From Bdellovibrionales bacterium (GTDB taxonomy: Bacteria; Bdellovibrionota; UBA1018; CAIMNF01): a DNA stretch of 64,000 nucleotides. Below, piece by piece: positions 41,235 to 62,205 of the stretch. The stretch's first letter is position 1, and every line of letters begins with the position of its first letter. The position numbers and the translations under genes are program-made. The notes under the pieces are model-generated. The model did not search any database, was not told the origin of the DNA, and was given only the letters and a program-made list of their open reading frames with translations. Location of the stretch: assembly GCA_018266375.1 (NCBI GenBank), contig JAFEAO010000001.1, positions 6,800-70,799 of the forward strand. Reading direction: 5' to 3'.

Positions 41235-44200
41235 ATGAGCACGAAGCTGATCTCAACATTACGCTTTATAATCCTGGGTTGGATGATGTACTCCCTCTCT
41301 TATGCGGAGGAAGCGCAAGTCCGCAGCAAAACGGCGAAACTGACCGATATGGCTGCTTTGTCCGTTCAGGATCGCTCGATCAACAAGCTCAAATCATTGC
41401 TCTCGCAATACCGCGGTACCCCGCGCGAGCCTGAGTTCTTGGTTCGTTTGGCCGACCTTTATATGGAGCGTTCGGGCATCAGCTTCCGTATTTCGGAAGG
41501 TGCGGCAACCAAGAAGACTCACCTCTATAAAGAATCGTTGAAAGAAAGCGTGAAGATCTTCTCCGAGATCATCGCAAAATATCCTTACTACGTCGGTACT
41601 CCGATGGCGCACTTCAAGCGCGGCAAGGCTTACAAAGAACTCGCTCAAATCAAAAACGCGAAAACCGACTATTTGTGGTTGGATTCTCACGCGCAAGACT
41701 TCGAATATCTCGACTCGGTGTTGATCGACCTCGCCGATTTCGCGCAAGATGCCGCTCAACATCAAGAAGCTCTCGGTTATCTGGGTAAAGTCGAAAAGAT
41801 GATCGGAAGCGATTACTATCCGCTCGCCCTGCACCGCTCGGCTTGGAGCCATTTCAACCTCGCTAACTTCCAACAAGCGCACGACTATTTGAAACGCGAG
41901 ATCGGTTACTACTTCGAAAGCACAAAAGACCAAAAAGAAGCGGGTTCGGGAGCTGAAGTTGCGTTCTTGGAAGCGGCTTTCAACGATCTCGCGCTCTTCT
42001 ACTTCGAATCGATCAACAAAAAATCTTCATTCGCGACTCCGGACAAGGCGATCGCCCTCTTCGACAAACTCGACGAGAGCAAAGATCGCAAGTATTTCGG
42101 TCCAACCGCGGCTCGTTTCGCGCGTCTTTTGAAGGCTTACACCCTGGTTCCGGAAATGAACCAAGTTAATAAGATCATGATCAGCGATTACGTCAAGACC
42201 CCGGAAACCGCCGACATCGCGATGCTCGTGTTCCAATTCCACGCTGAACGCCGTGAGTACAACCTCCTCCCGGCCGCTCTCGCCGACTTAAACAAAGTCC
42301 GTGCTGGCGTAAAAAGCAAGGATCTCGATAGCAAAGTCGAGAGTGCCGTTTCAGGAGCTTTGACCAACTTGCACAAACTCGTGATTAAAAACAAACTTGC
42401 CACCGAACGCAATACCCTCTTCCGTCCGTTGATTGCGCTTACCGAATCGGTATCCGAACTCCTCGGCAACGAAAACTCGACCGCCTTGATGGCAAACTAC
42501 TCGTTGGCCGAGACTTCATTCGAACTCGGCGAGTACGAGCGCGCGACTCAAAAGTACGTCGATCTCCTCGATCCGAAATATGCAAAAACTCTCGAAGCCA
42601 AAAAGATCACTCGTCCGAACCTGGCGCTCCGCCTGCTCTCTTCACGCTATCGCGAGCTCAAGAAAGACAAATTGGTTCCAGAAAAGCTCACCATCCGAGC
42701 ATTGAACACAAAAGTCAGTCCCGCACCAAAAGACCAAATCAAGAAGATGAACGATTGGATCGCTTGGGTCGATCAATTTACCCAAGAAATCTCGAAAAGT
42801 ACGCCGGTTGAAGACAAACTCTCTTACTGGGCGTTCAATCTCGAAGCGAATAAGCTCACTTACGAATACATCGACCAACAACGAGCTCTCACTCGCCTCG
42901 AAGAGTTTTCTTACAAACACGCCGACACCGACGAGGGCAACGTCTCGATCACCATCGTGCTCGACACCTTGGCCAAGTCCGAAGACTCGATCCGCCTCTA
43001 CGACGTGACTCAAAAAGTGCTTGCGGTCAAAAACTGGAAGAGCAAGGGTTTCTTGGAAAAAGTCGCCGAGCAAAGCGCCGACTCCCACCTGAAAATCACT
43101 CTCAAAGTCGAAAAGCCGGAAGAAATCTTAGCACGCACCAAAGAGTGCCAAAGCAAGTTCAAGAACTCCAAAGTCAGCCAAGAATGCTTGATCATCGAGG
43201 CAAAAACCGAGCTTAAACTCCAGCAGTACGAGAAAGCCGATAAAGAATTCACGACTCTCATGAGCCAGGTCAAGGATGCCAACAAAGTGCAACCGATCCT
43301 CCTCATGCGCTCGGATGCCCGCAACAAACTCGGCCGTTTGGATGATTCGGTTCATGACCTCTTCCAATATCAAACCATGACCGAGTTCAAGGATGCCGAC
43401 ATCACCCAAACCATCCTTCAACACTATTGGTTCAAGCGCGACACTCAGCACCTCGACGCTCTTTTGAAAAACCCGAAAGTATGTGCCGGTAAAAACGCCG
43501 AAGCATGCGAACAGTATCAGGTCGTCCGAGTACTCGAAGAAGGCGACTCGAAAATAAACTACCAAAAGATCTTCAAGAACACCACACACGGGGACAAGGG
43601 CCTCGTAACGGTTTGGGCGCTGACCGCGCTTCAAACCCCGAAGAAGCTCCCGTTCCAAGACCGACTGGTGCTCTTGAACCGTTTGGCGACTTCTTGGGAA
43701 CACCTGAACCCGCTCTTGCAAGTGCACCTCTTGCCGACGCTTCAAACTCGCGTAAAAGACACGCTTGAATCGATTCAAGTATCCGCTCCGGGGATTGCTC
43801 CATTGACCGAAGATACCGCGACCATCGAACGCCGCATGAAACTCATGCAAGAAATCGACGCTACTTTCGCCAAAGTCATGAAGCTCCCTTGGCTTGAAAT
43901 CAAGATCAAAGGCGCAAACGAGCTCGGAATCATCTATGAACGCTTGGTCCGTGACCTCCGCGGCATCAACACCCCGGAAGACCTTTTGAAACCGTTCGTG
44001 AACAAGTCGAAAGAAATCAACAACGCGATCCAACAGCTTCAAGCGATGGCAATCAACTATACCGGCGTATCCGTTCAGCAGGTTGCTGTCGCACCTGGCA
44101 AGAGCGGTAAAGCCGTCCCTTCCCGCGCTCCGGCAAGCGCGACCAAGGCTCAGAACCAGGAAGTAGCGGTCAAAAACCAACTTCTCTCGAAAGAAGTTGA

Positions 44201-44453
44201 GAACACCATCCCGGCAAACCTTTGGGGTGAGTGGAAAAACGGCGTGGAACACAAACGCCGCGACTACCTCTTTTACCTGGTATCCGTTACGGAAACCGCT
44301 AACCCTGAATTCAAAAACATCAGTCCTGTCGTCAAAGGCATGGTGCTCTTGTTTGCGGATGCCCCGGCAGAAGCATACGAGCTCGTCAAGAACGCTCCGG
44401 AGACTCCGTTCAAAGCAACCGTTCTTACTCAATTTCAAGGAGTGAAGCCATGA
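41235..44453 (+). CDS. Large periplasmic TPR-repeat protein (1072 aa), GltD/AgmU-like by size and context
   Basis: Signal peptide MSTKLISTLRFIILGWMMYSLSYA, helical repeat (TPR-like) composition throughout, RBS AAGGAGA. Confidence 0.65.
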   Translation: MSTKLISTLRFIILGWMMYSLSYAEEAQVRSKTAKLTDMAALSVQDRSINKLKSLLSQYRGTPREPEFLVRLADLYMERSGISFRISEGAATKKTHLYKESLKESVKIFSEIIAKYPYYVGTPMAHFKRGKAYKELAQIKNAKTDYLWLDSHAQDFEYLDSVLIDLADFAQDAAQHQEALGYLGKVEKMIGSDYYPLALHRSAWSHFNLANFQQAHDYLKREIGYYFESTKDQKEAGSGAEVAFLEAAFNDLALFYFESINKKSSFATPDKAIALFDKLDESKDRKYFGPTAARFARLLKAYTLVPEMNQVNKIMISDYVKTPETADIAMLVFQFHAERREYNLLPAALADLNKVRAGVKSKDLDSKVESAVSGALTNLHKLVIKNKLATERNTLFRPLIALTESVSELLGNENSTALMANYSLAETSFELGEYERATQKYVDLLDPKYAKTLEAKKITRPNLALRLLSSRYRELKKDKLVPEKLTIRALNTKVSPAPKDQIKKMNDWIAWVDQFTQEISKSTPVEDKLSYWAFNLEANKLTYEYIDQQRALTRLEEFSYKHADTDEGNVSITIVLDTLAKSEDSIRLYDVTQKVLAVKNWKSKGFLEKVAEQSADSHLKITLKVEKPEEILARTKECQSKFKNSKVSQECLIIEAKTELKLQQYEKADKEFTTLMSQVKDANKVQPILLMRSDARNKLGRLDDSVHDLFQYQTMTEFKDADITQTILQHYWFKRDTQHLDALLKNPKVCAGKNAEACEQYQVVRVLEEGDSKINYQKIFKNTTHGDKGLVTVWALTALQTPKKLPFQDRLVLLNRLATSWEHLNPLLQVHLLPTLQTRVKDTLESIQVSAPGIAPLTEDTATIERRMKLMQEIDATFAKVMKLPWLEIKIKGANELGIIYERLVRDLRGINTPEDLLKPFVNKSKEINNAIQQLQAMAINYTGVSVQQVAVAPGKSGKAVPSRAPASATKAQNQEVAVKNQLLSKEVENTIPANLWGEWKNGVEHKRRDYLFYLVSVTETANPEFKNISPVVKGMVLLFADAPAEAYELVKNAPETPFKATVLTQFQGVKP

Positions 44454-44695
44454 AATGGATTTTAATCGTCGGCATGATGTTGATCACTTCAGAGGTCCAG
44501 GCGCAGAACAGCAAGCGCTCGACCGTACTCAATTTTGAAGACGAGATGGTGGAAGGGATCAACCGGAAACCTCTCGATTCCGTGAACCAGATCAGTGAAC
44601 GGAATAAAAAAGGAAAATCCCACCTCTACAAAAAACGCGCCGGTTTCGCTGACCGCGACCAAATCCTCATGAATGAGTTGAGGCTGCAACCATGA
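44450..44695 (+). CDS. Small secreted protein (81 aa)
   Basis: RBS AGGAGTG, signal peptide MKWILIVGMMLITSEVQA, ATGA overlaps on both sides. Confidence 0.45.
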   Translation: MKWILIVGMMLITSEVQAQNSKRSTVLNFEDEMVEGINRKPLDSVNQISERNKKGKSHLYKKRAGFADRDQILMNELRLQP

Positions 44696-45891
44696 AGATC
44701 CATTTCAATAAGCACGAGTTCTTTGTTCAGTACTTCTACGGAAAACGGACTTCCGATATTCCGCAGAGTGAACGTTGGGATGGCGAAAGCCCGTTGGCAC
44801 TCGGCCACCCTGCCCGTTTCATTCTTCAGAGACGCGGTTCAAGGATTTTTATCCGCGACATGACCGAACCATTGGGCGTGAAACGCCCTTTGAGCAATTT
44901 CGATCTGACTCCGGATCAATACAATCAAAAGATCGCGATCGGCAATCTTGGCCGCGAAAGCTTGCTCATCCGTCCGATCTTCCAGACGAAGCCGGCCAGC
45001 ATCGAGAAGGCCCGCCTCATGCCGAAAGTCCCGCTTGCTGAAACGGCGGTCGCGGCGATCGAAGACACGCTTTTCAACAAGAACCTGAAAATAGTCGGCA
45101 GTGTCTGCGCTGCCCTCTTCTTGGCCGTGTTCGTGAGCAACATGATGCAACCCGATGTTCAAACGGACGAAGATTTGATTCCGAAGAAATTCGCGAAAAT
45201 CATCATGACCAAGCCGAAAGAAAAGATGAGCCAGCCCAGCTCCGGCGGCGCGGCTGCAAGCCAGGCCCAAGCAAAAGCGGTGGCTCGTGCGATGCAATCA
45301 AAGACCGTTCAAAAGAGCTTGAAAGCGATCTTGAAAGGCGGCTTGGCTAAGTACTCGGTGATGAATACGGGACGCGCGATCCAGAGCTTGTCTCAAAAAA
45401 TCGTATCGAACAACAACGTCACCGGTGCGGGCCTTCAAAACAAAGCGTCCGATATCCTGGCGGGCAGCCGGGTCGGTACTTTCCAAATCGGCAGCGAAAA
45501 CGGTTACGGTTCCGGCAACGGCGTGAACGTCAAGGGTCAAGGTAACGGTCAGTTCGAAATCGGTTTGAACACCAACGAAGCGTCGGTGGATGAAGGCTTG
45601 ACCCGCGAAGAGGTCGCGAAAGTCATCCACAGCCACATGAACGACATCCGTTACTGCTATGAAACCGGTATCTTAAAAGATCCGTCTTTGGCGGGTAAGG
45701 CTTTGATCGATTTTAAAATCAACCCGGAGGGAGCCGTTCCAAACGCGAAGGTGGGTGAGATGACCCTTTCTGACCGTTCGGTCGGAAGCTGTCTCATCAG
45801 CAAACTTCAAACTTGGAAATTCCCTAAACCACGCGGCGGAGTTCACGTAGCAGTGAGCTATCCGTTCGTATTCAAGAGCTTATCGAGGTAA
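44692..45891 (+). CDS. Single-TM protein with Gly-rich periplasmic linker and C-terminal TonB-C-like domain (GltG/PglI-AgmX-like), 399 aa
   Basis: ~110-aa cytoplasmic N-domain, TM IVGSVCAALFLAVFVSNMM, then GSGNGVNVKGQGNG. C-terminal ...IRYCYETGILKDPSLAGKALIDFKINPEGAVPNAKV...SVGSCLISKLQTWKFP... follows the TonB_C pattern (the xGxVxVxFxIxxxGxV...W.F.P beta fold). Confidence 0.55.
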   Translation: MKIHFNKHEFFVQYFYGKRTSDIPQSERWDGESPLALGHPARFILQRRGSRIFIRDMTEPLGVKRPLSNFDLTPDQYNQKIAIGNLGRESLLIRPIFQTKPASIEKARLMPKVPLAETAVAAIEDTLFNKNLKIVGSVCAALFLAVFVSNMMQPDVQTDEDLIPKKFAKIIMTKPKEKMSQPSSGGAAASQAQAKAVARAMQSKTVQKSLKAILKGGLAKYSVMNTGRAIQSLSQKIVSNNNVTGAGLQNKASDILAGSRVGTFQIGSENGYGSGNGVNVKGQGNGQFEIGLNTNEASVDEGLTREEVAKVIHSHMNDIRYCYETGILKDPSLAGKALIDFKINPEGAVPNAKVGEMTLSDRSVGSCLISKLQTWKFPKPRGGVHVAVSYPFVFKSLSR

Positions 45892-45896
45892 TCATC

Positions 45897-47690
45897 ATGA
45901 AACTGATCACGCTATCGGCATTGATGCTGGTTGTAAACGCCCACGCTGGGGACTTTCGGTCGATCAGCGAACGTGGCTCCGTCTCTGTTAAACAAGGTTG
46001 CCAATCCGGCGAACGCTGGACCATCGGCGGAACCTCGAACCCGAAATGGTTGGACCGTTTCCACGACTTCACCAGCGGCAAAATCACTCCGGTAAGCGGT
46101 TTCGCCGAAGCTGTGTCATTGAAACGCATCAGCGCGCTTCTCAAGAAATCCGATTTCGAACGCGACTTCTCGGAATATTGGGTCGGCCGCATCCTGTACG
46201 AGATGAAACTCGATCCGTTGGCGCACCAAGTGTTCGAATCCGTCCTTGAAAACACCGACCAACAAGAAATTAAGAAAGCCGCTTTCGTCTGCATGGCGAT
46301 GATCCAACACCGTAGCCCGGATTGGAAAGCGCCTGCCGACAAAGTTGAATGGGGCGCGTTTGACCTCACCGCGGACGATGCGGATGCGATCTACACCGCC
46401 TCCCTCACACGTCCGACCAAAAATACTTGGTTGCTCCCGGCCGGCTATCGCGATTTCTACAAAGGCGTACAAGCGATGAAAGATCGCAAGTACACCGAAG
46501 CGCACGAGCATCTTACCAAGTTCATCGCTTACCTCGATGCTCCGAAGGTCGTGACGCGCTTAGAGAGATATCGCGACGTTGCTCACATCATGCTGGGCCG
46601 CGCGCTTTACTCGACCGCTCACTTCAAAGAAGCGACTCTCGAGTTTCAAAAAGTCAAAAAGACATCGAACATGCAGATCGAGACATTGAGCAACTTGAGC
46701 TGGGCGTACCTGCTTCAAGAAGACTTCGATGCTTCGCTCGGGATCTCATTGCAGTTGCGTACCGGCAACTTGCGTAACGCTTTCGCGCCTGAAACCCAAA
46801 TGGTGGCTGCGATGGCGCTGAACGAACTTTGCATGTATCAAGACTCCATTCGTGAAGTTCAAACTTTCATTAACGACTACGGCACAAGCTTCAAATGGCT
46901 CTCCGCGAACCAAAAGAACAAAGAGATCTACGCCGAGCTTTTGAAATACTTCAAAAAGCAAAGCACGGTTCCGACTAAGGTCGCTACCGAGTGGATGAAG
47001 AGCCCTCAATACATCAGCCGTCAGGAAGAGATCAACCGTCTGATCGAACACCCGAGAAAAATGGTGGAATGGCACCAAAAGGGTTATCAGGAACAGATCA
47101 AGATCACCAACGACTTTATCGCTAAAAGCATGAAGTTCGTTGCCGACGTCAAGCAAGCCAAAATCAGACAGAAACCGGGTGACGATGAGATGCCCGAGAA
47201 GCTCGCGATTCAGTATCTTAACATGAAGCGCGACCTCCGCCGCCTCACCCGCTACTACCGTGCTTCCAAAATCTGGAAAAACCTGACTCGTAACTACGAG
47301 AAGCGCATTCCGGGCTATCGCATGATGGTCGTCAACAACATCAACGCCGACCTTCAAAAAACCAATAAGTCGATGCTCATGACCCTCAACATGGTCCGTG
47401 AGAATATGGACTTGATCGAAGTCGAGATCTACAACGGCGCGAGCCAAGACTTGGTTTGGAAGGAAGCTCACCCCGACTACGAGAAGGTGTCGGCTGAGAT
47501 CGAAACCCCGGAACAAGAAGTCGCGAACTCGACGGTTTGGAAATGGGGGCGCTTTCTCGCCTCTGACGTTGAAAACGCCGAGGTCTGGGAAGATGAAGTC
47601 GGTACCCTGAAGGCCGATATCTCCAACCAATGCGATAAGAAAGACCGTTATTTGAAAGTTAAATTGACCACAAGAAGGACGAAGTCATGA
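45897..47690 (+). CDS. Secreted TPR-like protein (597 aa), GltE/AglT-like by size and context
   Basis: Signal peptide MKLITLSALMLVVNAHA, helical repeats, RBS GAGGT. Confidence 0.55.
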   Translation: MKLITLSALMLVVNAHAGDFRSISERGSVSVKQGCQSGERWTIGGTSNPKWLDRFHDFTSGKITPVSGFAEAVSLKRISALLKKSDFERDFSEYWVGRILYEMKLDPLAHQVFESVLENTDQQEIKKAAFVCMAMIQHRSPDWKAPADKVEWGAFDLTADDADAIYTASLTRPTKNTWLLPAGYRDFYKGVQAMKDRKYTEAHEHLTKFIAYLDAPKVVTRLERYRDVAHIMLGRALYSTAHFKEATLEFQKVKKTSNMQIETLSNLSWAYLLQEDFDASLGISLQLRTGNLRNAFAPETQMVAAMALNELCMYQDSIREVQTFINDYGTSFKWLSANQKNKEIYAELLKYFKKQSTVPTKVATEWMKSPQYISRQEEINRLIEHPRKMVEWHQKGYQEQIKITNDFIAKSMKFVADVKQAKIRQKPGDDEMPEKLAIQYLNMKRDLRRLTRYYRASKIWKNLTRNYEKRIPGYRMMVVNNINADLQKTNKSMLMTLNMVRENMDLIEVEIYNGASQDLVWKEAHPDYEKVSAEIETPEQEVANSTVWKWGRFLASDVENAEVWEDEVGTLKADISNQCDKKDRYLKVKLTTRRTKS

Positions 47691-48151
47691 AGACGTCGGA
47701 ACGCTACTACCTATTCAAAGGCGGCCAACTCTTCGGGCCGATCGTGCAGGAGAAACTTGAAACCCTGCGTAAAACCGGAGAGATCCTCCGTTACTCGTGG
47801 ATCATGAATGAGTCGGATCAGAGCTGGGAACCGGTCGATACCAAACCTAAAGAAAACCCATTTACGGCGACGAAGACGACTTTAAAGTCCCGCGACTTCT
47901 CTGGCGCGTTCATTTTCGCCAAGAATCCCTATTTGGGTGAAGTTAAAGGAATACACTCTTTCGGTGTAGAACTTTTTATCGACGGTCATAAAATCGCCGG
48001 CCTTCAGCCCAATACCGTGTTACAATTGAACCTAGCAGACGAGACTCACGATCAGGCCATCAATACCGAGGTGGTCTTTCAACAAGCTGAAGAGCAGGCC
48101 AATGGAGTACTATTGCGCTTCGGCTGGGTCCAGGGTCCCGCGCAGCTGTAA
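47687..48151 (+). CDS. Cytoplasmic GYF-like (DUF4339-type) domain protein with a beta-rich C-terminal half (154 aa)
   Basis: YYLFKGGQLFGPIVQEKLETLRKTGEILRYSWIMNESDQSWEPV fits the DUF4339/GYF-like pattern (WYY..NGQ.GP...EL..L...G.I...TLVW..G...W.P). The C-terminal ~80 aa are beta-strand-like, possibly PilZ-like. Confidence 0.45.
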   Translation: MKTSERYYLFKGGQLFGPIVQEKLETLRKTGEILRYSWIMNESDQSWEPVDTKPKENPFTATKTTLKSRDFSGAFIFAKNPYLGEVKGIHSFGVELFIDGHKIAGLQPNTVLQLNLADETHDQAINTEVVFQQAEEQANGVLLRFGWVQGPAQL

Positions 48152-48181
48152 TTATTAACGAACCAAAGTAGGAGGTTGACC

Positions 48182-49009
48182 ATGAAGGTCCATCGCATTG
48201 CTTTACTGCCCGTCTCAATCCTAGTTTTAATGCTCTGTCAAAACGCATTCGGCGCGGACAAGAAAAAGAAAGTTGCAGCACCCGCTCCCGTAGCAGCCGC
48301 AACCGCTCCGACCAGGGATGCAGCCGCCGCTGCCGCAGCTAACGAAAAAGCCGCGGAAGAAGGCGAAAGCGTCGACGTCAGCAAGATCACCGAAAAATAC
48401 TGGGCCCAAGGCAAAGAGACCGAGCTCGGCGTAGTTCAAAACCGCAAGTACACGAGCGCAGGTCGTTTCGAACTCGAGGGTTTTTTCGGTACGATCTCGA
48501 GCGACCCGATGTTGACCGTGCACCACTTCGGTGGGTCGCTCGGTTATCACTTCGATCAATATTTTAGTTTGCATGCGATCGCATGGCGCTCGATCGCGAA
48601 AGGTTCGGACGCATTGGCCGCATTCGATGCGCTGAACTCAGGCACGAACGCGAACACCAACCTTCCGTCGGGATTCTACGGCTTACAGGCCAATTACAAC
48701 ATCCTCTACGGCAAGGCGTCTCTCGTCGGTAAGGCGATTATCTACGTCGATATCTTCGTGCTCGGCGGCTTGGGCATCACCGGAACCGAAACCGGGAACT
48801 ACTTCACTCCGTTCCTCGGCCTCGGACAGAAAATTCACTTGAACAAGTACATGGCGCTCTCGCTCGACTACCGAGTCATGCGCTACAACGAGACCATCAA
48901 GTACAAAAGTCCGGGAACGCTTCCTGTAACCCACTCGGTGGGTGACGTCGCGGGCGATCGTGCGAATACGACCGACGTCGTGACCTTGGGCATAAGTTTC
49001 TTTTACTAA
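48182..49009 (+). CDS. Outer-membrane beta-barrel protein (276 aa), last gene of the operon
   Basis: Perfect RBS AGGAGG 6 nt upstream, signal peptide MKVHRIALLPVSILVLMLCQNAFG, Ala-rich linker, beta-barrel pattern and a C-terminal ...LGISFFY terminus. Confidence 0.6.
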   Translation: MKVHRIALLPVSILVLMLCQNAFGADKKKKVAAPAPVAAATAPTRDAAAAAAANEKAAEEGESVDVSKITEKYWAQGKETELGVVQNRKYTSAGRFELEGFFGTISSDPMLTVHHFGGSLGYHFDQYFSLHAIAWRSIAKGSDALAAFDALNSGTNANTNLPSGFYGLQANYNILYGKASLVGKAIIYVDIFVLGGLGITGTETGNYFTPFLGLGQKIHLNKYMALSLDYRVMRYNETIKYKSPGTLPVTHSVGDVAGDRANTTDVVTLGISFFY

Positions 49010-49076: not shown

Positions 49077-49820
49077 TCAAGACTTCTTGCTGATGCGGTA
49101 ACCGGCGCCGTAAACGGTTTGGAAATTGCCGTCGAATGCGGAGACTTTTTTACGCAACGAAGTGACGTGCGCATCGATCAAACGGTCGTTTTTATTTTGG
49201 TCTCCCCAGACGACGTCCATGATATCTTTACGGGAAACCACGGTACCCGCTCTCGCCATCAAAAGTTGGAGAATGCCGAACTCGCTCGGACTCAAGTCGA
49301 TCGCGCGGCCGTCGACATTGACTTCGCGGCTCTGCACGTTGAGCGTGAGATTACCCAAGATCAGTACCATCTCGGAAACTTTGCCGAGCTCGCGTGCGCG
49401 CTTCAATTTTGATCGCAAACGAGTGAGGAGCTCTTCGATTTCGAAAGGTTTGGAAATAAAATCATCGGCACCGCTGTTGAAAGCACGGATACGTTCAAAA
49501 CTGGTGTTTGCCGCGGTCAACATCAATACAGGAATGTGTTTTGTTTCCGGCATTTGCCTCAACTGATCGCAAGCGGCGACGCCGTCGAGTTTCGGCATCA
49601 TGATGTCCATGAGAATGAGATCCGGACGAATTTTTTTTGCGAGTTCGACGGCTTCGCGTCCGGTGGATCCCAGCGTCACTTGAAAGTGATCGGTAAGAAA
49701 TTCTTTCAAAAGCACACGAATTTGCGGCTCATCGTCGATTACGAGAAGCTTCGGCAAATTAGATGACCTTTGTGTATTTGGTGCTGCTGTATTCACGATT
49801 TCGTTCATGAACTCTCTCAT
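49077..49820 (-). CDS. OmpR/PhoB-family response regulator (receiver + winged-helix) with no adjacent histidine kinase
   Basis: ...KLLVIDDEPQIR...DLILMDIMMPKLDG... receiver domain. ...LTLNVQSREVNVDGRAIDLSPSEFGILQLLM...GAGYRI trans_reg_C domain. Confidence 0.8.
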   Translation of the reverse strand: MREFMNEIVNTAAPNTQRSSNLPKLLVIDDEPQIRVLLKEFLTDHFQVTLGSTGREAVELAKKIRPDLILMDIMMPKLDGVAACDQLRQMPETKHIPVLMLTAANTSFERIRAFNSGADDFISKPFEIEELLTRLRSKLKRARELGKVSEMVLILGNLTLNVQSREVNVDGRAIDLSPSEFGILQLLMARAGTVVSRKDIMDVVWGDQNKNDRLIDAHVTSLRKKVSAFDGNFQTVYGAGYRISKKS

Positions 49821-49912
49821 CTAAATTTCTATCGGAAATCGTAACTCAAGACAAGCCCCAAAAGAGCTATTCATCATCTCCAGCTCACCGCCGAACCGAG
49901 ACAAAGTGAAAA

Positions 49913-50311
49913 TTATTTCATACCTGCTTTTTGCCGAATAATCAGGTCGATCTGCTTCTGCGCGGAAGCAGGCGGAGTTTTCTCCACGCCTCGGTCGAAA
50001 TACTTAACGGAGCGCAACTTGGTGTCTTCGCCGTAATACAACCAAAGCCCTTCTTTACGTCCCTCATCAAATTGGCCTTCGAGCGCGATCGTTCCGGTGG
50101 TTTTATAGGCCTGTGTAAACTTGCCGTGGTTGAGCATTTTGTGCCCTGAAAACTCCTTTTGCTCGCAGCGCTTGTCTCCGGTGATCTTCGGATTCCAAGT
50201 GATGTCCCCGCCTTCTGAGCAGGGTTTATGGATCGCGCAACCGCCGATCAGCAGAGTCAAATACAGTGACAATAAAGTGACGTGATGGCCGCGCAAAACG
50301 GTTCGATTCAT
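49913..50311 (-). CDS. Small lipoprotein with MORN/YwqK-like repeats (133 aa)
   Basis: MNRTVLRGHHVTLLSLYLTLLIGGCAI lipobox. HGKFTQAYKTTGTIALEGQFDEGRKEGLWLYYGEDTKLRSVKYF resembles MORN-variant / YwqK-type repeats. Confidence 0.5.
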   Translation of the reverse strand: MNRTVLRGHHVTLLSLYLTLLIGGCAIHKPCSEGGDITWNPKITGDKRCEQKEFSGHKMLNHGKFTQAYKTTGTIALEGQFDEGRKEGLWLYYGEDTKLRSVKYFDRGVEKTPPASAQKQIDLIIRQKAGMK

Positions 50312-50321
50312 AAATATTATA

Positions 50322-52214
50322 TTAGCGCACTTTAAGAGCCTTACGCACGAAATTTGGATCGACGTCAGTGCGGGGTACCGAAAACTCGAACCAACCGCGG
50401 ACATCCTGATCAAGACCGATACCGAGCATGAAATTGTAAACCGCTTTGCGCAATCCCTTGCCCAGGCCGTCATGATCGACACCGGTCGGATCGACAAATT
50501 CTAAATCGTTCTCGGCGAACTCGATATTTTTGTCACGCAAAATCTTAATCCCGTAATCATCGGGCGAGAGCCCCACCGGAGAATGAGCGGTGGCCGAAAA
50601 CCGGTGCCAAAAAGCGGAAGTTAAACATCCGGCTTCGAACAATTGTCTTACGCGTTCCAAACTATCGATGGTTTCCTGCACGGTCTCGGTTGGAACCCCG
50701 TACATCAAATAAGCGTGCACAAGTACGTTCGAATCACGAAAGTTTTTAGTCACTCGCGCCACCTGCTCGACGGTGACGCCTTTTTTCATCATTTTTAAAA
50801 GGCGATCCGATGCGACTTCCAAACCGCCCGACACCGCGACACAGCCAGCGTCACTCATTCTCTCGGTCAGCTCGGCGCTAAAGGTTTTCTCGAAGCGAAT
50901 ATTGCCCCACCAACTGAAACTTAATTTTTGTTCGATCAGCTCTCTCGAAAGCTCTTTCAAAACTGCCGGCGGTGCCGCTTCGTCGACGAAGTGAAACCCG
51001 CTCGAACCGGTTTCATCGCTGAGCTTTTTCATCCGCTCTACCGTGAGTTTGACCGGAGAAATTTCGTATCGCTTGATGTAATCGAGACTCACATCGCAGA
51101 AACTGCACTGATGCCAATAGCAGCCATGCGCGAGCATCAGCTTGTTCCAATAAAGGTCGGACCAATACCGATGCATCGGATTCAGCATCTCGACCATCGA
51201 AAGATAATCGTGAATCCTGAGTCCGTCCGTGGTCGGCAGGCCGGTCTGAAGTTGCGGAATATCGTGCTCGTCCGGGGAATTGCAGTACTCGATGAGGGCC
51301 TTTGATTTTTCGGAAAGCAGGAACGTTCGGAGCAAACTGTCACGTTCGCGCTTTCCGGACCAAAACTCGAGCAAACACTCCAGAGGCCTCTCACCGTCAT
51401 CGAGGGTGATCGCGTCCACGAACTCGAACAACCGCGCATCCTTGAGCTGCCTGAGCTCGGTATTGACGTAGCCTCCACCCATCGCGATTTTCAAACTGCG
51501 ATTTTTCGATGCGGCCCATTCCCGCGCCGAGTTCGCGATCTTCAACGCACCCAGTACGCAACCCGGAAAAGGCACGGTCAATAAAAGGACATCCGGCTGC
51601 ACCTGATCCAAAGTTTCTTGTGTCATCTCCTTGAGCAAGCCGGTTAAAAGTGCAGCTGGGTTTTCTTTCTTAATCTCATCATATAACGCGTCAAACTTTG
51701 CCTGACTGGCCGCTAATTTCTCGCCATAGCGCGATAAAAAGAAGTAAGAATCCACTCCTTCAGTCACAACATCGGTTAAATCATCGATGTAGAGACTCGC
51801 TAAGTGCTTGGCTTGATCCTGCACTCCCATCGATCCGAACGCCCATTGCAAATCTACGGCATCGACGGATTGAAATCTCGGGCCCTCCGGAAGAAGCGTA
51901 CGTGCCGCAATTCGGTGAGCGAGCGCTGGATCCTTGGCCTGGAGGAAGCGAATCGCGGGATCAACGGTTTTTTGATAATCGTCGAAACTTTCGAGGAAGA
52001 ATTCAATACGGTCTGATTTTTGCTCCAACGCCGAAACCGTTTCGCGAACCCGCGCAAGACCAGGCGGCGAAAATAATCGAAGAACGAGTTCCAAACCCAA
52101 GTCGCGCTGCTCGGCGTTGATCCCGCGCGAACGCAAGAAGCCCGTGATGAACGTCGTCGATGGGTACGGCGTGTTCACTTGGACGAGCGGTGGAATGATC
52201 GATAAAACCTTCAT
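50322..52214 (-). CDS. B12-binding-domain radical SAM protein (630 aa) with atypical CX4CX2C cluster motif
   Basis: N-terminal Rossmann-like B12-binding-type region (MKVLSIIPPLVQVNTPYPS...), GCYWHQCSFC in the radical-SAM core position, and a downstream ...SGGLEVASDRLLKMMKKG... (GGE-like SAM-binding) motif. Confidence 0.65.
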   Translation of the reverse strand: MKVLSIIPPLVQVNTPYPSTTFITGFLRSRGINAEQRDLGLELVLRLFSPPGLARVRETVSALEQKSDRIEFFLESFDDYQKTVDPAIRFLQAKDPALAHRIAARTLLPEGPRFQSVDAVDLQWAFGSMGVQDQAKHLASLYIDDLTDVVTEGVDSYFFLSRYGEKLAASQAKFDALYDEIKKENPAALLTGLLKEMTQETLDQVQPDVLLLTVPFPGCVLGALKIANSAREWAASKNRSLKIAMGGGYVNTELRQLKDARLFEFVDAITLDDGERPLECLLEFWSGKRERDSLLRTFLLSEKSKALIEYCNSPDEHDIPQLQTGLPTTDGLRIHDYLSMVEMLNPMHRYWSDLYWNKLMLAHGCYWHQCSFCDVSLDYIKRYEISPVKLTVERMKKLSDETGSSGFHFVDEAAPPAVLKELSRELIEQKLSFSWWGNIRFEKTFSAELTERMSDAGCVAVSGGLEVASDRLLKMMKKGVTVEQVARVTKNFRDSNVLVHAYLMYGVPTETVQETIDSLERVRQLFEAGCLTSAFWHRFSATAHSPVGLSPDDYGIKILRDKNIEFAENDLEFVDPTGVDHDGLGKGLRKAVYNFMLGIGLDQDVRGWFEFSVPRTDVDPNFVRKALKVR

Positions 52215-52228
52215 GCTTCGCCCCTGCC

Positions 52229-53023
52229 TTATTTGCGTTCCATCACGAAATGACTGATTCGGTAGATGCCTTGGCCCTTCGGAGCCGGATGATCGCTGCT
52301 GACGGTGTGAATGAATACGTTCATGGTCTTCGGACTGAACACGCTGGCCATCGCGACCAAATTTTTCGGTTCGTTCTCAAAACTCGCGACAACTTCGCCG
52401 AAGCCCATGATCGTCGCCGCCGCCTTGGACTTAAATTCCAAGTCGTCGATGTGACGCTTTGGCTTGAGAATGAGGCGCGAACGCTCCTGCTCGATCGGAA
52501 ACTCGTGCTGTTTGAGTTGATCGAAGGTACCAAACGACATGAGCGGCACGTCCCGACCGGTAAGATACACGATCTTCGCGCCGCGTTCGTAGAGCTCTTG
52601 CACGAACTTCACGGCGCCGTCGGTCGGTTCGTCGTGAACCATATAGTCGTTGCTGAAAAACCGGTCGCGCCAGAATTTTTTTGCATCCTTGAACGACTCG
52701 GAATGCGGAGCCGTCTCAGGATCGATCTTCTTGGCGTCCCAAACATCTTGAAGCGAATATTTCATGTCGTCGGGCTTCAAAGTCTTTAGCGCTTTTACCG
52801 TATCCGAATATTGCTGAGTCGACGGATGCGTGATCCATTCCTGCAAAATCTCGTAAGAGCGCCGGGAAACATCAAACAAAGTGGAGTCCAGGTCGAACAC
52901 GACGACCGGGAGTTTGCCTTCTTTTTTAACGAGATCAACTCGCCTCAATACTTCACTAAGAACAGCGGCGTCCTTCATGTCCTGGAACTCGGTTCTCTTG
53001 ATCCACTCGTCGCGAATAAACAT
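52229..53023 (-). CDS. HAD-superfamily hydrolase (264 aa)
   Basis: VVFDLDSTLFD motif I (DxDxT) and ...KIVYLTGRD... (motif II/III region). Confidence 0.6.
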   Translation of the reverse strand: MFIRDEWIKRTEFQDMKDAAVLSEVLRRVDLVKKEGKLPVVVFDLDSTLFDVSRRSYEILQEWITHPSTQQYSDTVKALKTLKPDDMKYSLQDVWDAKKIDPETAPHSESFKDAKKFWRDRFFSNDYMVHDEPTDGAVKFVQELYERGAKIVYLTGRDVPLMSFGTFDQLKQHEFPIEQERSRLILKPKRHIDDLEFKSKAAATIMGFGEVVASFENEPKNLVAMASVFSPKTMNVFIHTVSSDHPAPKGQGIYRISHFVMERK

Positions 53024-53040: not shown

Positions 53041-54738
53041 CTACCTAAAGCTCTCGACCGGACGATATCTCACTCGCTTCGGAGTCAGAGCCTCGGCGCC
53101 CAAGCGGCGTTTCTTGTCTTCTTCGTAATCCTGGTAGTTACCCTCGAAGAATACGACGTTCGAGTCGCCTTCGAACGCGATGATGTGAGTCGCGATGCGG
53201 TTCAAGAACCAGCGATCGTGCGAGATCACCATCGCGGTACCCGCGAAGTTCGAGAGCGCTTCTTCGAGCGCGCGCAAGGTGTTGACGTCGAGATCGTTGG
53301 TCGGCTCGTCGAGCATGAGGACGTTCGCGCCCGATTTCAAAATCTTTGCCAAATGGAGACGGTTACGCTCCCCACCTGAGAGTACGCCGACCATTTTTTG
53401 CTGGTCCGAACCGCTGAAATTAAAGCGCGCGCAGTAGCTGCGCGAAGGCACTTCGCGGTTACCGACCATCACGACTTCGTTTTTTCCGTCGGAGATTTCT
53501 TCCCACACGGTCCAGTTCGGATTCAACGCATCGCGAGATTGATCAACATACGCAAGCTTCACGGTGTCGCCAGTGCGGATCGTGCCGCTATCCGGTTTTT
53601 CCTGGCCGGTGAGCATGCGGAAGAGCGTGGTTTTGCCCGCGCCGTTCCCGCCGATAATACCGATGATCGCGCCCGCGGGAATTTTAAAGCTCAAGTCCTT
53701 GAAAAGCACTTTGTCGCCGAATGCTTTGGAAATATTATCCGCTTCAAACACCACTTGACCCAGGCGTGGGCCTGCAGGAATGAAAATCTCCATCTCCTCG
53801 TCGCGTTTTGCGGCGTTTTGGTTTTCCGCGAGCATTTGCTCGTAGGCTTGAACGCGCGCTTTTGATTTAGCCTGACGCGCGCGAGGAGACATCGAAATCC
53901 ACTCGAGTTCGCGAGCCAATGTTTTTTGGCGTTTTGATTCTTGCTTCTCTTCTTGCGCGAGGCGCGCTTGTTTTTGCGCAAGCCATGAAGAATAATTGCC
54001 TTCCCAAGGTATCCCATGACCGCGATCGAGTTCCAAGATCCAGCCCGCGATGTTGTCCAAGAAGTAACGATCGTGAGTGACCGCAATGACCGTACCTTCG
54101 TACTTTTGAAGGAACGTCTCCAGCCAACCCACCGATTCCGCGTCCAAATGGTTGGTCGGCTCGTCCAGGAGCAACACGTCCGGACGTTGAATGAGGAGAC
54201 GGCACATCGCCACGCGACGGCGTTCACCACCCGATAAATTTTTAACGTTCGCGTCAGGCGGAGGACAACGAAGCGCTTCCATCGACACTTCAAGCTTACG
54301 ATCGATATCCCAACCGTCCTTGGCTTCGATCCGCTCTTGAACCTTTGCTTGCTCCTCGAGGAGGTCGTTCATTTTATCCGGATCGAGATCCGGATCAGCA
54401 AAGGCAGCTCCGATTTCTTCGAAGCGCTTCAGGTCGCGGCCAAGCTCACCCGTACCTTCCATCACGATCTCGCGTACGGTTTTAGTTGGGTCGAGTTCCG
54501 GCTCTTGCTTCAAGTAACCGAAGGTGATTCCATCTGACGGGAGCACTTCGCCGTTCACGTTTTTTTCTTCGCCCGCGATGATTTTCATCAGCGTTGACTT
54601 ACCCGCTCCGTTCAGACCCAAGATGCCGATCTTCGCGCCGTAAAAAAACGAAAGCGAAATATCCCGAAGCACCTGCTTGTTGGGCGGATATATCTTGGAG
54701 ACGCGACTCATCGAGAACGCAAACTTGGGTTTTGCCAT
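53041..54738 (-). CDS. ettA: ABC-F family ATPase, energy-dependent translational throttle EttA-like
   Basis: MAKPKFAFSMSRVSKIYPPNKQVLRDISLSFFYGAKIGILGLNGAGKSTL closely parallels the EttA N-terminus. Two ABC cassettes (LSGGERRR and LSGGERNR signatures), 565 aa. Confidence 0.85.
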   Translation of the reverse strand: MAKPKFAFSMSRVSKIYPPNKQVLRDISLSFFYGAKIGILGLNGAGKSTLMKIIAGEEKNVNGEVLPSDGITFGYLKQEPELDPTKTVREIVMEGTGELGRDLKRFEEIGAAFADPDLDPDKMNDLLEEQAKVQERIEAKDGWDIDRKLEVSMEALRCPPPDANVKNLSGGERRRVAMCRLLIQRPDVLLLDEPTNHLDAESVGWLETFLQKYEGTVIAVTHDRYFLDNIAGWILELDRGHGIPWEGNYSSWLAQKQARLAQEEKQESKRQKTLARELEWISMSPRARQAKSKARVQAYEQMLAENQNAAKRDEEMEIFIPAGPRLGQVVFEADNISKAFGDKVLFKDLSFKIPAGAIIGIIGGNGAGKTTLFRMLTGQEKPDSGTIRTGDTVKLAYVDQSRDALNPNWTVWEEISDGKNEVVMVGNREVPSRSYCARFNFSGSDQQKMVGVLSGGERNRLHLAKILKSGANVLMLDEPTNDLDVNTLRALEEALSNFAGTAMVISHDRWFLNRIATHIIAFEGDSNVVFFEGNYQDYEEDKKRRLGAEALTPKRVRYRPVESFR

Positions 54739-54768: not shown

Positions 54769-55494
54769 TTAAATGTACCAAATTAAGCGCACAAGCGCAA
54801 TTTGCGGGAGCGGAAGCTTTGAAATCCGGCCCATCGCGTCCGAAGCGTCCACATAGGGATCCGTCGGATCGGCCGCACTCTGATCCGCATTGACGGTCAC
54901 GTTCCCCCAGGAAATGGGCGAAAGTTGAGCGCCGAGATCGACGCCGATTGAAACATTCTCACTGAGCGGCCACTGTCCACCGACAATCAGGCCAAAAAAC
55001 ACGGTATTGAGACTGAGACCCGCGGAGGATGCAAGCGGCGCCTCCCCGTCCGACTTGTAACTTGAAATGTCGGCATTGAATCCGACATGACGATATCCAA
55101 ATTCAATCCCAATCAAAAACCAATCCGACCAAGGGTGGTAACGAACGCCGACCATGGCCGTCCAATCGTTTAGAATCCGGTTATTGCCGAAACTCAAACG
55201 GAAGTAACCGCCTTCCACAAAAAAGCTGAGATCCGGATCAAATGAAGGAATCGCTTCAAGCCCGACCGACAACGGCTGCGGAACCGTGATCGCAGTGACC
55301 ACGCCCAAGCGATATTGATCGTTACCGATCGAAGTTTTGTACGGAGTCTCGAGCGTGTTTTTGGCCGCCGCGGTCGGAACTTGCTCCTCCGGCACGGACC
55401 TTGGCCGCGGTTGAAGCCCGCGGTCCGATGGCGTGACGTCAGACGCCTGTGCGCATAGACCCGCGAGTAATGCCAGCACCACCCATCCCTTCAT
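54769..55494 (-). CDS. Secreted, probably outer-membrane beta-barrel-like hypothetical protein
   Basis: Signal peptide MKGWVVLALLAGLCAQA and a beta-strand-rich, aromatic-rich body. The start is chosen at the internal ATG. Confidence 0.4.
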   Translation of the reverse strand: MKGWVVLALLAGLCAQASDVTPSDRGLQPRPRSVPEEQVPTAAAKNTLETPYKTSIGNDQYRLGVVTAITVPQPLSVGLEAIPSFDPDLSFFVEGGYFRLSFGNNRILNDWTAMVGVRYHPWSDWFLIGIEFGYRHVGFNADISSYKSDGEAPLASSAGLSLNTVFFGLIVGGQWPLSENVSIGVDLGAQLSPISWGNVTVNADQSAADPTDPYVDASDAMGRISKLPLPQIALVRLIWYI

Positions 55495-56933
55495 GGCACG
55501 ACCTTCACCGGATTTGAAATCACCCACTGATACCGCTGAGACGCGTACTTTTTGCTGAAGATGAGGTCAAACAGATGCAGCGGATACATATAGACGTGCA
55601 TCCGGTAGTGACCCGCGGCCGGATTATTGTAAACGATTTGCTCCCCACCCTTTGCCAATGCGACGACCGATTCGTTCCCGGATGCATCAATGTAATGGAG
55701 CTCGCCTTCGATGAACGGTTGATTGCGCGGGTTCATAAAAAAGGAAGACGAATGCGCTGTCGGAACAGTTGCGATGATCGAAGCCATCTGCCCGCCCACG
55801 GTGAGGGTACCGCCCATCTCGACGATGGTTCCGTTTTGATTTCCGTAAAAATCGAGACCCGCCGGAGTGCCGATCCCTTCGAGCGCGAAGTAGACCCGTC
55901 CCGCTTGAATCGCCGCTTTAATGGTCGTGCTGTCGTCGGCTGTCGTGAGCACGAGGTTGGACATGAATCTCGTCATCCGGCGATGGCCGTCGAGGCGCTC
56001 TCCGTCTGACGCTTTTTGCGGGAAAACGTTTTCGTGCGAATCGAGTCCGCCGAGACCGGTGACTTGCATCCCACCTGCGAGAAGCGCATTCCAACGCTGC
56101 ATATATACCGGCGCAAATTGCACGAACTCCATGAAAAAGAAATCGGCATTGAGCTGATTGAACGGATCGACCAGATAATTCAAAAATTTTGCAATATGCT
56201 CGAAAGGCGCGAGGCCAAGCCACTTTTTACGCAACTTCGGATCGATATTGGCATGGACGTTGTAGATCTCGATAAATTTAGGCGCGATGCTTTGAATCGT
56301 CGTGAGATCGCGGCTCTCAGTGTGCGGAACTCCAACCAGCGCGTTTGATAGGGTTTCAAGTTGGGCACGCTCAGTAGACGACTCTCCTCCATAGATTGCT
56401 TGTCGAGTGGCAATCACCGGCGAAGCGTGATGCTCCATCCCGAGCGCAAGCAAGCGGCCTTCGAGGCCCGGAGCCATCGCCGATTTAAAACCGTCCGAGC
56501 AATTGATCTGAGTCGCGATGGGCTCCGCGGAGCCATTGTAAAGAATCGTATCCCCTGCTTCCGCCAGCACGAGTTGCGGAAATTCGTAGTCAGCTAAATG
56601 CGAAACGTGATCGGTGAGGAACGCGAGGTTGACGTGATTGGTGCAGAATGCTTTTTTGATGTCATGAAGGCAGTCGGTATTGGGATTACCTGCATCATCA
56701 AGTCCTTTGCTGTCGCAAGCGTCAAAGCTGTAAGGACTATGAAAATGCGTTTGCACGCGCGCGAAGTGAAGCCCGCGTACTGTTCCGAGTGCCGTCGTAT
56801 CGACAAGTCCCGGGCTCGGATCTTTGCGAGCGCAAGAACTCGCCATGGCCGTTAAAGCTGCAACCCAAATGATCAATGATGCCGTGCGTTTATTTTTACT
56901 CACCCCTGGAATCCTTGATCTGCACACTACCAC
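55491..56933 (-). CDS. Secreted metal-dependent phosphoesterase-like protein (PHP-like motif), 480 aa
   Basis: ...HFARVQTHFHSPYSFDA... resembles the PHP/CehA-type His-x-His metal site. N-terminal hydrophobic signal with a GTG start. Assignment is weak. Confidence 0.35.
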   Translation of the reverse strand: MVVCRSRIPGVSKNKRTASLIIWVAALTAMASSCARKDPSPGLVDTTALGTVRGLHFARVQTHFHSPYSFDACDSKGLDDAGNPNTDCLHDIKKAFCTNHVNLAFLTDHVSHLADYEFPQLVLAEAGDTILYNGSAEPIATQINCSDGFKSAMAPGLEGRLLALGMEHHASPVIATRQAIYGGESSTERAQLETLSNALVGVPHTESRDLTTIQSIAPKFIEIYNVHANIDPKLRKKWLGLAPFEHIAKFLNYLVDPFNQLNADFFFMEFVQFAPVYMQRWNALLAGGMQVTGLGGLDSHENVFPQKASDGERLDGHRRMTRFMSNLVLTTADDSTTIKAAIQAGRVYFALEGIGTPAGLDFYGNQNGTIVEMGGTLTVGGQMASIIATVPTAHSSSFFMNPRNQPFIEGELHYIDASGNESVVALAKGGEQIVYNNPAAGHYRMHVYMYPLHLFDLIFSKKYASQRYQWVISNPVKVVP

Positions 56934-60100: not shown

Positions 60101-60113
60101 AAAACTTCATAAT

Positions 60114-60677
60114 TTAAATCGCCGTGACTTCGATCACTTCCGGAACAAGTTCTTTAAGCTTTGTTTCGATACCCATTTTGAGGGTCATCGAAGAGCTCGG
60201 ACAACCCGAGCAAGCGCCTTGCATGTGCAAATAGGCAACACCGTCTTCGAATCGGTCGAGGGTCACGTCGCCACCGTCCATCGCCACTGCCGGACGAATT
60301 TCATCGTCCAAAAACTTTTGAATACGTCGCTCGACTTCAGAGGCATTTTGACTTCCGAGCTTGTTGGTCTCTTCTTCGTTCACGACCATCTCGCCCGCGG
60401 TGAGGTGGGATTCGATCAACTCGGACGCGCTCTTGTGCACGAGATCCCAATCACCGTCTTCAGTCTTGGTCACGGTGACGAAATCACGACCGATCATGAC
60501 GCCCGAGATTCCCACGATTTTAAGGAGCTTCGTCGCGAGTGGCGAGCGCGCTTCGGCGTCCGCGAGGTTGGTAAAGTTAGCCGCGCCCTTATCGAGGAGC
60601 TTGCGATTGACCGAATACTTCAAAGTATTCGGGTTTGGGGTGAATTCGAGGGATACGTAGACCGCAGATTGTTCCAT
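60114..60677 (-). CDS. NfuA/NifU-like Fe-S cluster carrier protein
   Basis: C-terminal Nfu domain ...HMQGACSGCPSSSMTLKMGIE... (CxxC), 187 aa. Confidence 0.7.
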   Translation of the reverse strand: MEQSAVYVSLEFTPNPNTLKYSVNRKLLDKGAANFTNLADAEARSPLATKLLKIVGISGVMIGRDFVTVTKTEDGDWDLVHKSASELIESHLTAGEMVVNEEETNKLGSQNASEVERRIQKFLDDEIRPAVAMDGGDVTLDRFEDGVAYLHMQGACSGCPSSSMTLKMGIETKLKELVPEVIEVTAI

Positions 60678-62183: not shown

Positions 62184-62205
62184 AAGGTAACGGGTGCATT
62201 ACGGT

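Follow-up and report, generated by a model that had tools for sequence, protein, structure and literature searches.

A radical S-adenosylmethionine (SAM) enzyme of 630 amino acids, encoded at 50322-52214 on the minus strand of a 64 kb stretch of DNA from a Bdellovibrionales bacterium (contig JAFEAO010000001.1, G+C content about 51%; this whole stretch is called the window here), is probably a stand-alone class-B-type enzyme that belongs to a large and conserved family, and its neighbours are probably there by lineage-specific synteny rather than as parts of a four-gene pathway. A preliminary description of the same DNA had grouped the enzyme with a HAD hydrolase, a MORN/YwqK-like lipoprotein and an orphan OmpR-type response regulator, and had proposed that the four genes make up a self-regulated modification pathway. 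Our analysis supports the enzymological side of this proposal, namely that the radical SAM enzyme is of the class B type and that its cluster loop has the non-canonical form CX4CX2C. The pathway is not supported: the four genes are not conserved together beyond one clade, the junctions between them are broken even inside this clade, and phosphatases are not enriched next to the members of the family. The locus is an ordinary one that carries a member of an interesting enzyme family. The enzyme and its parts are located as follows:

50322-52214, minus strand: radical SAM enzyme of the class-B-type family, 630 amino acids, stop codon included (list of open reading frames [ORFs]; PF04055)
52083-52214, minus strand: residues 1-44, the first two strands of the predicted Rossmann domain of the B12-binding type (model: strands 2-7 and 33-38, helix 18-29)
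51600-52082, minus strand: residues 45-205, all-helical insertion between Rossmann strands 2 and 3 (model: helices 39-205)
51255-51599, minus strand: residues 206-320, Rossmann strands 3-5 and a beta-hairpin, with the predicted cobalamin site P215-F216 and G246-G247 (model, conservation)
51096-51122, minus strand: CX4CX2C [4Fe-4S]-binding loop, C365-Y-W-H-Q-C370-S-F-C373 (translation and alignments)
50580-51146, minus strand: residues 357-545, radical SAM partial barrel, including H408-x-x-D411-E412 at the GGE position (PF04055, model)

The protein is 100% identical to an NCBI entry named 'MAG: radical SAM protein [Bdellovibrionales bacterium]', and its assignment to the radical SAM enzymes holds when it is compared with the hidden Markov model of the superfamily: PF04055 matches residues 363-521 with 51.3 bits at a cut-off of 29.5. 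The stretch 51084-51137 on the minus strand translates to MLAHGCYWHQCSFCDVSL, so that C365, C370 and C373 indeed have the CX4CX2C spacing that had been read from GCYWHQCSFC. This motif is no artefact of translation, as it is conserved across the homologues: it is invariant at 56-100% identity in two alignments of 24 and 76 sequences, and the form GCY[WH]xxCxFC occurs in every listed representative that covers the site (about 140), down to about 32% identity. In an alignment of 99 sequences that reaches equally far down, P215, F216, G246, G247, G364, C365, Y366, C370, F372 and C373, followed by L377, H408, D411, A413, R440, G457, G464, E466, K478 and R523, are conserved to at least 97%. The three invariant cysteines make up the cluster motif of a radical SAM enzyme, but with the spacing CX4CX2C instead of CX3CX2C. 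The same motif is used for the cluster of OxsB (PMC9204698), and RadicalSAM.org lists one cluster of sequences with this spacing (PMC9477430).

The claim that the specificity of the enzyme is uncharacterised agrees with our results, since no cut-off of a curated NCBIfam family was reached either by the enzyme or by ten distant members of its family. The best scores fall far below the respective thresholds: 77.9 bits against 600 for PhpK (TIGR04479), 63.5 against 282 for the C-methyltransferases of ribosomally synthesized and post-translationally modified peptides (TIGR03975; the alignment begins at residue 191 of the enzyme) and 54.8 against 360 for the ladderane-type family TIGR04072. Weak as they are, the NCBIfam matches are exclusively to class B families, i.e. 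PhpK, the peptide C-methyltransferases just mentioned, BchE, HpnJ and BzaD. Among solved structures, phmmer and profile searches of the PDB found only weak matches to the barrel, in MgmA, AprD4 and Elp3. The best of these is MgmA (family profile, E 1e-4, barrel residues 398-524), AprD4 is the second-best profile match, and OxsB does not appear at E≤10. The longer members of the family contain no informative fused domain, and we found no paper on a GCYWxxCxFCD family in the literature.

The family is large and widely spread. A homologue search gave more than 8000 matches, and when 1.84 billion cluster representatives were scanned exhaustively with HMMER, 572 clusters at 50% identity were obtained with E<1e-30; at least 592 GTDB species carry a member. 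The hosts include Burkholderiales, Neisseriales, Oceanospirillales, Marinomonas, Shewanella, Bacteroidota, Planctomycetota with the Planctomycetaceae, Acidobacteriota and Bdellovibrionota, and members from different phyla are about 55% identical to each other. In Ideonella, Vitreoscilla, Aureibacter, Fulvitalea and Parabacteroides distasonis the copies are located on megaplasmids. The member of P. distasonis (WP_011966460.1, 44% identity; NZ_OY725823.1, 209881-211761, locus L159) is encoded 18 nt downstream of yihA/ysxC, and as a cultivable anaerobe of the human gut, P. distasonis would lend itself to genetic work on the family. One metagenome contig (L127; the L-numbers are labels of the homologous loci that we compared) carries two radical SAM paralogues in tandem, of 614 and 612 amino acids, at 3153-4997 and 5001-6830 on the plus strand.

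The fold of the enzyme was modelled with AlphaFold2 on the 76-sequence alignment (predicted local distance difference test score [pLDDT] 91.7, predicted template modelling score [pTM] 0.91). The model has strands at residues 2-7, 33-38, 209-213, 242-246 and 268-270, a hairpin at 297-300/308-311 and a helix at 18-29, and about 160 amino acids of helices (39-205) are inserted into the predicted Rossmann domain and divide it; this insertion itself holds family-conserved residues such as P109 and Y163. Alternating strands and helices at 357-540 make up the barrel, and a C-terminal domain follows. When the model was compared with the PDB by Foldseek, the top matches were TsrM (1.2e-13), MgmA (1.9e-12), OxsB (3.3e-12), TokK (2.7e-10) and CysS (3.5e-10), all five of them cobalamin-binding enzymes; AprD4 and MiaB rank after these, and the barrels of many radical SAM enzymes are matched. 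Class 1 cobalamin radical SAM enzymes are defined by a five-stranded Rossmann domain with a C-terminal hairpin, and in TsrM, OxsB and TokK the residue under the cobalt sits on the loop after strand 3 (2025 review, PMC13331322). Both the Rossmann strands and the hairpin are present in our enzyme as predicted by the model, in a fold that is interrupted by the insertion of about 160 amino acids. The loop after strand 3 carries P215-F216 and the turn after strand 4 carries G246-G247, and these four are the only residues in the N-terminal half that are conserved to at least 97%, exactly at the positions of the cobalamin-contacting loops. This conservation lends indirect support to a predicted binding of cobalamin. 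Of the architecture proposed earlier, an N-terminal B12-binding-type Rossmann region joined to a radical SAM core, the fold is thus borne out by the model, by Foldseek and by PF04055, whereas the domain profile for B12 binding, PF02310, fails to recognise it; the weak or faint precomputed matches to PF02310 that do occur in homologues, all below the threshold, fall on the segment of residues 206-320.

The second pillar of our reading is the genomic solitude of the enzyme. Outside a close clade of Bdellovibrionales-like loci (61-100% identity of the radical SAM enzyme), tblastn found neither the HAD gene nor the lipoprotein gene in any of 80 genome loci with 52-56% identical enzymes, a set that includes seven Bdellovibrionota, nor are they present in about 40 metagenome loci with 30-47% identity; the expectation that the four genes occur together across genomes thus failed. 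No ORF cluster recurs in more than eight of the 80 genome and 42 metagenome loci, and the neighbours that do recur, AsmA/DUF748, NupC, MCP and GGDEF-EAL proteins, do so sporadically. A census of the adjacent genes outside the clade gave the same picture: the 112 upstream genes represent 110 Pfam families (at the top DUF455 with five members) and the 111 downstream genes represent 93 (at the top PseudoU_synth_2, also with five). Since no neighbour recurs outside the clade, we conclude that the enzyme is encoded by a solitary gene.

A phosphohydrolase as the family-wide partner was considered and rejected. The idea came from the HAD protein of the window, an HD_5 protein in L090, a histidine phosphatase in Aureibacter and a SpoIIE protein in Vitreoscilla, but no such enrichment exists among the 112 upstream and 111 downstream neighbours. 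Genes related to translation also lie near some family members, with EttA in the window, yihA in P. distasonis and pseudouridine synthases at 5 of 111 downstream positions; this pattern is too weak to be interpreted. An MnmC-type bifunctional gene (Methyltransf_30 and DAO domains) is located at 35737-37623 on the plus strand of the window, about 13 kb from the radical SAM gene, and at L084 such a gene (6719-8554, minus strand) is only about 1 kb away from it.

In the window itself, the radical SAM gene stands in a run of genes that are all encoded on the minus strand:

55491-56933, minus strand: 480-amino-acid protein without a Pfam match, co-directional, upstream of EttA
54769-55527, minus strand: DUF3575-like outer-membrane protein, co-directional, upstream of EttA
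53041-54738, minus strand: EttA, the ABC-F translational throttle (NF008775, 942 bits against a cut-off of 599)
52229-53023, minus strand: HAD-superfamily phosphatase, predicted cytoplasmic, 264 amino acids (PF03767 and PF00702), distant kin of class B/C acid phosphatases
49913-50311, minus strand: clade-specific lipoprotein, 132 amino acids; the true start is the ATG at 50311
49077-49820, minus strand: OmpR/PhoB-type response regulator, 247 amino acids (ORF list; Response_reg 103 bits and Trans_reg_C 73 bits, both above the cut-off)

The ORF list confirms the four co-directional genes for the HAD protein, the radical SAM enzyme, the lipoprotein and the regulator. The HAD gene is not the first of the run, however, since EttA is encoded directly upstream of it on the same strand, at a distance of 17 nt, and two more genes precede EttA; altogether, seven rather than four genes are co-directional, up to position 56933. 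The distances given before, 14 to 92 nt, are nearly exact: the HAD and radical SAM genes are 14 nt apart and the lipoprotein and regulator genes 92 nt, whereas only 10 nt separate the radical SAM gene from the lipoprotein gene. A consensus scan detected no terminator-like site in the minus-strand intergenic gaps between 48.9 and 55 kb; these genes may therefore be co-transcribed.

Within the close clade, the order EttA-HAD-radical SAM-(lipoprotein)-regulator recurs in relatives with 61-73% identity. Yet, so does everything around it: the whole block of 10-15 kb is syntenic, including the convergent genes for an outer-membrane protein, a 154-amino-acid protein and a TPR protein as well as the upstream gene for the 480-amino-acid protein. 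As this synteny extends to EttA and to the outer-membrane and TPR proteins on the opposite strand, adjacency says little about function. Moreover, the block is interrupted just where a pathway would need to be intact. In about half of the clade loci (L092, L093, L095 and L096), genes on the opposite strand, among them genes for a solute-binding protein, a GLUG-motif protein and a glutaminase-like protein, break the junction between the HAD and the radical SAM gene, and in L094 a gap of about 570 nt separates the two. The lipoprotein gene is present in the window and in L084, L091, L092, L094, L095 and L098, and it is absent from about half of the clade (L081, L083, L093, L096, L097 and L100-L102). 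The regulator gene is missing from L084. EttA adjoins the HAD gene in L081, L083, L084, L093, L095 and L096, and we observed that the relatives keep this adjacency more often than that of the HAD and radical SAM genes.

The three neighbours that had been assigned to the pathway are of different kinds. The HAD identity of the protein encoded at 52229-53023 stands: PF03767 (35.3 bits) and PF00702 (30.6 bits) are both above the cut-off, the sequence contains the motif DLDST, and the catalytic residues D44, D46, T48, T155 and K187 of motifs I to III (DxDxT, T, K) are invariant. Motif IV in HAD enzymes is usually an acidic GDxxxD sequence. Here, residues 215-221 read FENEPKN, in which N217 and N221 never vary and E216 and E218 hardly do; judged by its sequence, this would be an unusual metal-binding loop for a HAD phosphatase. 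The closest solved relatives are the e(P4)/class C acid phosphatases (PDB profile, E 2e-7), the AlphaFold2 model (pLDDT 96) best matches generic HAD folds, and there is weak similarity to LNS2/lipin-type proteins and to the phosphatidic-acid-binding Nir2. The family is small, with 359 clusters, and is confined to the close clade when it stands next to the radical SAM gene; homologues with 38-43% identity are found in unrelated contexts, neither beside a radical SAM gene nor beside EttA. The lipoprotein has the same sequence as the hypothetical protein of the locus tag JST80_00245. Its hydrophobic signal is followed by the invariant lipobox cysteine C25, and C31 and C49 are invariant as well. 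The family comprises only 44 clusters in a database of 5.8 billion sequences and is restricted to the clade. The lipoprotein of the window has no Pfam match at E≤10, and its profile has no significant match in the PDB; the MORN/YwqK label rests on one JGI annotation as YwqK and on weak matches to MORN_2 (PF07661), which 15 of 36 homologues show at E≤1 (best 8e-4). The regulator reaches no NCBIfam equivalog cut-off (PhoB 183 against 296) and is the orthologue of no named regulator. As described before, a kinase is lacking in its vicinity: we found no histidine kinase encoded by the large ORFs that the window contains from 36 to 64 kb. In L098, where the radical SAM enzyme is 69% identical, a PAS-HisKA-HATPase kinase of 512 amino acids (7281-8819, plus strand) is encoded between the lipoprotein and the regulator and overlaps the start of the regulator gene. 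The position of this kinase directly upstream of the regulator gene suggests that the regulator is the remnant of an ordinary two-component module, and the regulator of the window was probably orphaned by the loss of the kinase.

How the enzyme may work we infer from the cluster motif, the predicted fold and the known class B enzymes. C365, C370 and C373 would hold a [4Fe-4S] cluster, at which SAM would be reductively cleaved to a 5'-deoxyadenosyl radical that takes a hydrogen atom from the substrate. Cobalamin would be bound by the Rossmann domain, above the loop with P215-F216 and the turn with G246-G247, and might either donate a methyl group, the commonest outcome in class B, or hold a radical intermediate, as proposed for OxsB. 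A methyltransferase activity is plausible; we consider methyl transfer the single most likely chemistry, without giving it more weight than all others taken together, and regard other cobalamin-assisted radical chemistry as distinctly less likely. Since the gene travels alone and the proteins of the family are acidic (median isoelectric point 5.9), the enzyme probably acts on a small molecule, a lipid or a protein that is common in cells, and neither on RNA nor on the product of a dedicated gene cluster. It is tempting to speculate that the family performs a reaction that has not yet been described, i.e. the cobalamin-assisted radical modification of a ubiquitous molecule such as a lipid, a cofactor or a housekeeping protein by a single enzyme, which would combine an enlarged loop of the OxsB type with a substrate-binding helical domain in the Rossmann fold; we put this idea forward only tentatively.

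Several observations weigh against the reading of the protein as a stand-alone, cobalamin-dependent enzyme. PF02310 has no match in the enzyme of the window at E≤10, and in the homologues it never rises above its cut-off (best 31.6 bits against 32.1). AprD4, with a similar N-terminal domain, is among the structural matches, and AprD4 is not known to need cobalamin. Nothing in our results separates methyl transfer from other radical chemistry, and the acidic isoelectric point argues only weakly against an RNA substrate. As for the neighbours, a mere 14 nt lie between the HAD and radical SAM genes in the window, the two genes even overlap by 4 nt in L084, and terminator-like sites are lacking in the gaps of the minus strand; the HAD and radical SAM genes may thus be co-transcribed and have some functional link in this lineage. 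The points on the cofactor lead to an explanation that does without cobalamin: the Rossmann domain would survive as a relic with a structural or substrate-binding role, comparable to the N-terminal domains of AprD4 and MiaB, and the enzyme would use only the 5'-deoxyadenosyl radical, e.g. for dehydration, C-C bond formation or thiolation. This would fit with AprD4 and MiaB as structural matches, with the second rank of AprD4 in the PDB profile search, with the failure of PF02310 throughout the family, with an insertion of 160 amino acids that could remodel the cofactor face and with the fact that many of the hosts are aerobes. However, the best-conserved residues of the N-terminal half lie on the very loops that touch cobalamin in TsrM, OxsB and TokK, a hairpin typical of class 1 cobalamin enzymes is predicted after strand 5, and all five top structural matches bind the cofactor, so we judge a cobalamin-independent enzyme to be unlikely. 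Much less probable still, and in our opinion the most doubtful of the explanations, is an OxsB-like enzyme that does not methylate but rearranges a nucleotide or another phosphorylated small molecule, with the HAD protein trimming the product as the phosphohydrolase OxsA does for OxsB (PMC13331322). The two enzymes share the CX4CX2C spacing and an xDE sequence at the GGE position (V410-D411-E412 in our enzyme), OxsB is among the top structural matches, the closest solved relatives of the HAD protein are nucleotidase-type class C acid phosphatases, and nucleotide-related genes are scattered among the neighbours: NupC-type transporters at five loci, a dCTP-deaminase-like gene and a 5'-nucleotidase in P. 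distasonis. Yet phmmer and profile searches detect no homology to OxsB (E≤10), TsrM and MgmA outscore it structurally, its extra N-terminal domain is absent whereas the insertion of our enzyme lies inside the Rossmann fold, and the HAD partner occurs in one clade only, with no family-wide enrichment of phosphohydrolases.

The points on the neighbours bear on two further explanations. According to the preliminary description, the HAD protein, the radical SAM enzyme, the lipoprotein and the regulator would form a self-regulated operon for a modified (e.g. C-methylated) lipid or metabolite, with the HAD enzyme dephosphorylating the substrate or the product. The common orientation, the gaps of 14, 10 and 92 nt without a terminator-like site, the recurrence of the order HAD-radical SAM-(lipoprotein)-regulator at 61-73% identity and the weak similarity of the HAD protein to LNS2/lipin-type proteins and Nir2 are in line with this idea. 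It is nevertheless very improbable: outside the clade the HAD and lipoprotein genes occur at 0 of 80 genome and 0 of about 40 metagenome loci, the census revealed an enrichment of neither phosphatases nor regulators, genes on the opposite strand separate the HAD and radical SAM genes in four clade loci, the regulator is missing in L084 and has its own kinase in L098, and the unrelated flanking genes for EttA and for the outer-membrane and TPR proteins are equally well conserved. Among the neighbours, only the lipoprotein hints at a real coupling, by its close or overlapping start in two sub-lineages. It could be, then, that only the radical SAM enzyme and the MORN-like lipoprotein cooperate in the clade, for instance in handling or sensing an envelope-directed product, and that the HAD protein, EttA and the regulator are bystanders. 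The lipoprotein gene starts 4-10 nt past the stop codon of the radical SAM gene or overlaps it in the window, L092, L094 and L095, and it follows directly in L084, L091 and L098; the pairing is found both at 61% and at about 70% identity of the radical SAM enzyme despite different downstream genes, and many members of the 44-cluster lipoprotein family are encoded on contigs that match those with the radical SAM gene in size. But about half of the clade loci and every locus outside the clade lack the lipoprotein, and it is not obvious how an Fe-S enzyme in the cytoplasm would interact directly with a lipoprotein that is exported. Such a narrower linkage therefore seems improbable to us, if less so than the complete operon, and a solitary enzyme in a syntenic block remains the explanation that we prefer.

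The surroundings of the locus deserve a brief description. A conserved plus-strand block at 41235-49009 converges on the regulator gene; L081 and L083 have this block of six genes as well. Its products are proteins of 1072 and 399 amino acids without Pfam matches, the 154-amino-acid protein, a TPR protein of 597 amino acids that weakly resembles GltC, a protein of gliding motility (E 2e-10), and a beta-barrel protein that matches TIGR04565 (OMP_myx_plus); the block may specify an envelope or gliding-type complex. At 58439-63972, the window contains a sugar-nucleotide/polysaccharide set with genes for a GH15 glucoamylase-like protein, ManC (GDP-mannose pyrophosphorylase/isomerase), a GDP-mannose 4,6-dehydratase/epimerase-type protein and a UDP-glucose/GDP-mannose dehydrogenase. 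The complete window (1-64000) is devoid of tRNA genes, and nothing in it matches Rfam at the gathering threshold, be it a riboswitch or another RNA element.

The two enzymes of the locus can be compared with known systems. The HAD protein shares the DxDxT, T, K core and a PF03767 match above the cut-off with the class B/C acid phosphatases AphA and e(P4), but it has neither a signal peptide nor a lipobox, it scores only 25 bits with TIGR01533 (cut-off 216), and its motif IV is FENEPKN. The apparent operon in the window should not be annotated as a pathway. The radical SAM enzyme resembles MgmA, the glutamine C-methyltransferase of methyl-coenzyme M reductase of the MJ0865 type (PDB 9ccb), which is a high-ranking structural match and the best match at the sequence level; only the second half of the barrel aligns, however, the enzyme scores 30.5 bits with TIGR04014, the MgmA family, whose cut-off is 360, and MgmA is an archaeal protein tied to methanogenesis whereas the family described here is bacterial and widespread. 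With OxsB and AlsB, which catalyse the ring contractions in oxetanocin and albucidin biosynthesis, the enzyme has the CX4CX2C loop, the acidic xDE at the GGE position and a cobalamin-type Rossmann domain in common, and the phosphohydrolase next door in this clade loosely recalls OxsA, although it is a HAD protein here and an HD-domain enzyme there. Members of the OxsB/AlsB family are related in sequence and share a four-domain architecture with an extra N-terminal domain; our enzyme has no detectable sequence homology to OxsB, and its model contains no separate N-terminal domain. Finally, the model places the enzyme beside the class 1 cobalamin radical SAM enzymes TsrM, TokK, CysS and OxsB, with which it shares the order of Rossmann domain with hairpin, barrel and C-terminal domain. 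It is only 13-17% identical to the solved members of this class and differs from them by the insertion of about 160 amino acids in the Rossmann domain; in TsrM and TokK, moreover, the loop is CX3CX2C instead of CX4CX2C. The family thus unites a rare loop, seen earlier in OxsB, with an inserted helical domain. For most class B enzymes that have been studied, the substrate is revealed by the antibiotic, phosphonate or cofactor cluster in which the gene lies, whereas the gene described here is solitary in many phyla, outside natural-product clusters, and its family has no curated counterpart; identifying its substrate would extend cobalamin radical chemistry by a new reaction, probably one of housekeeping.

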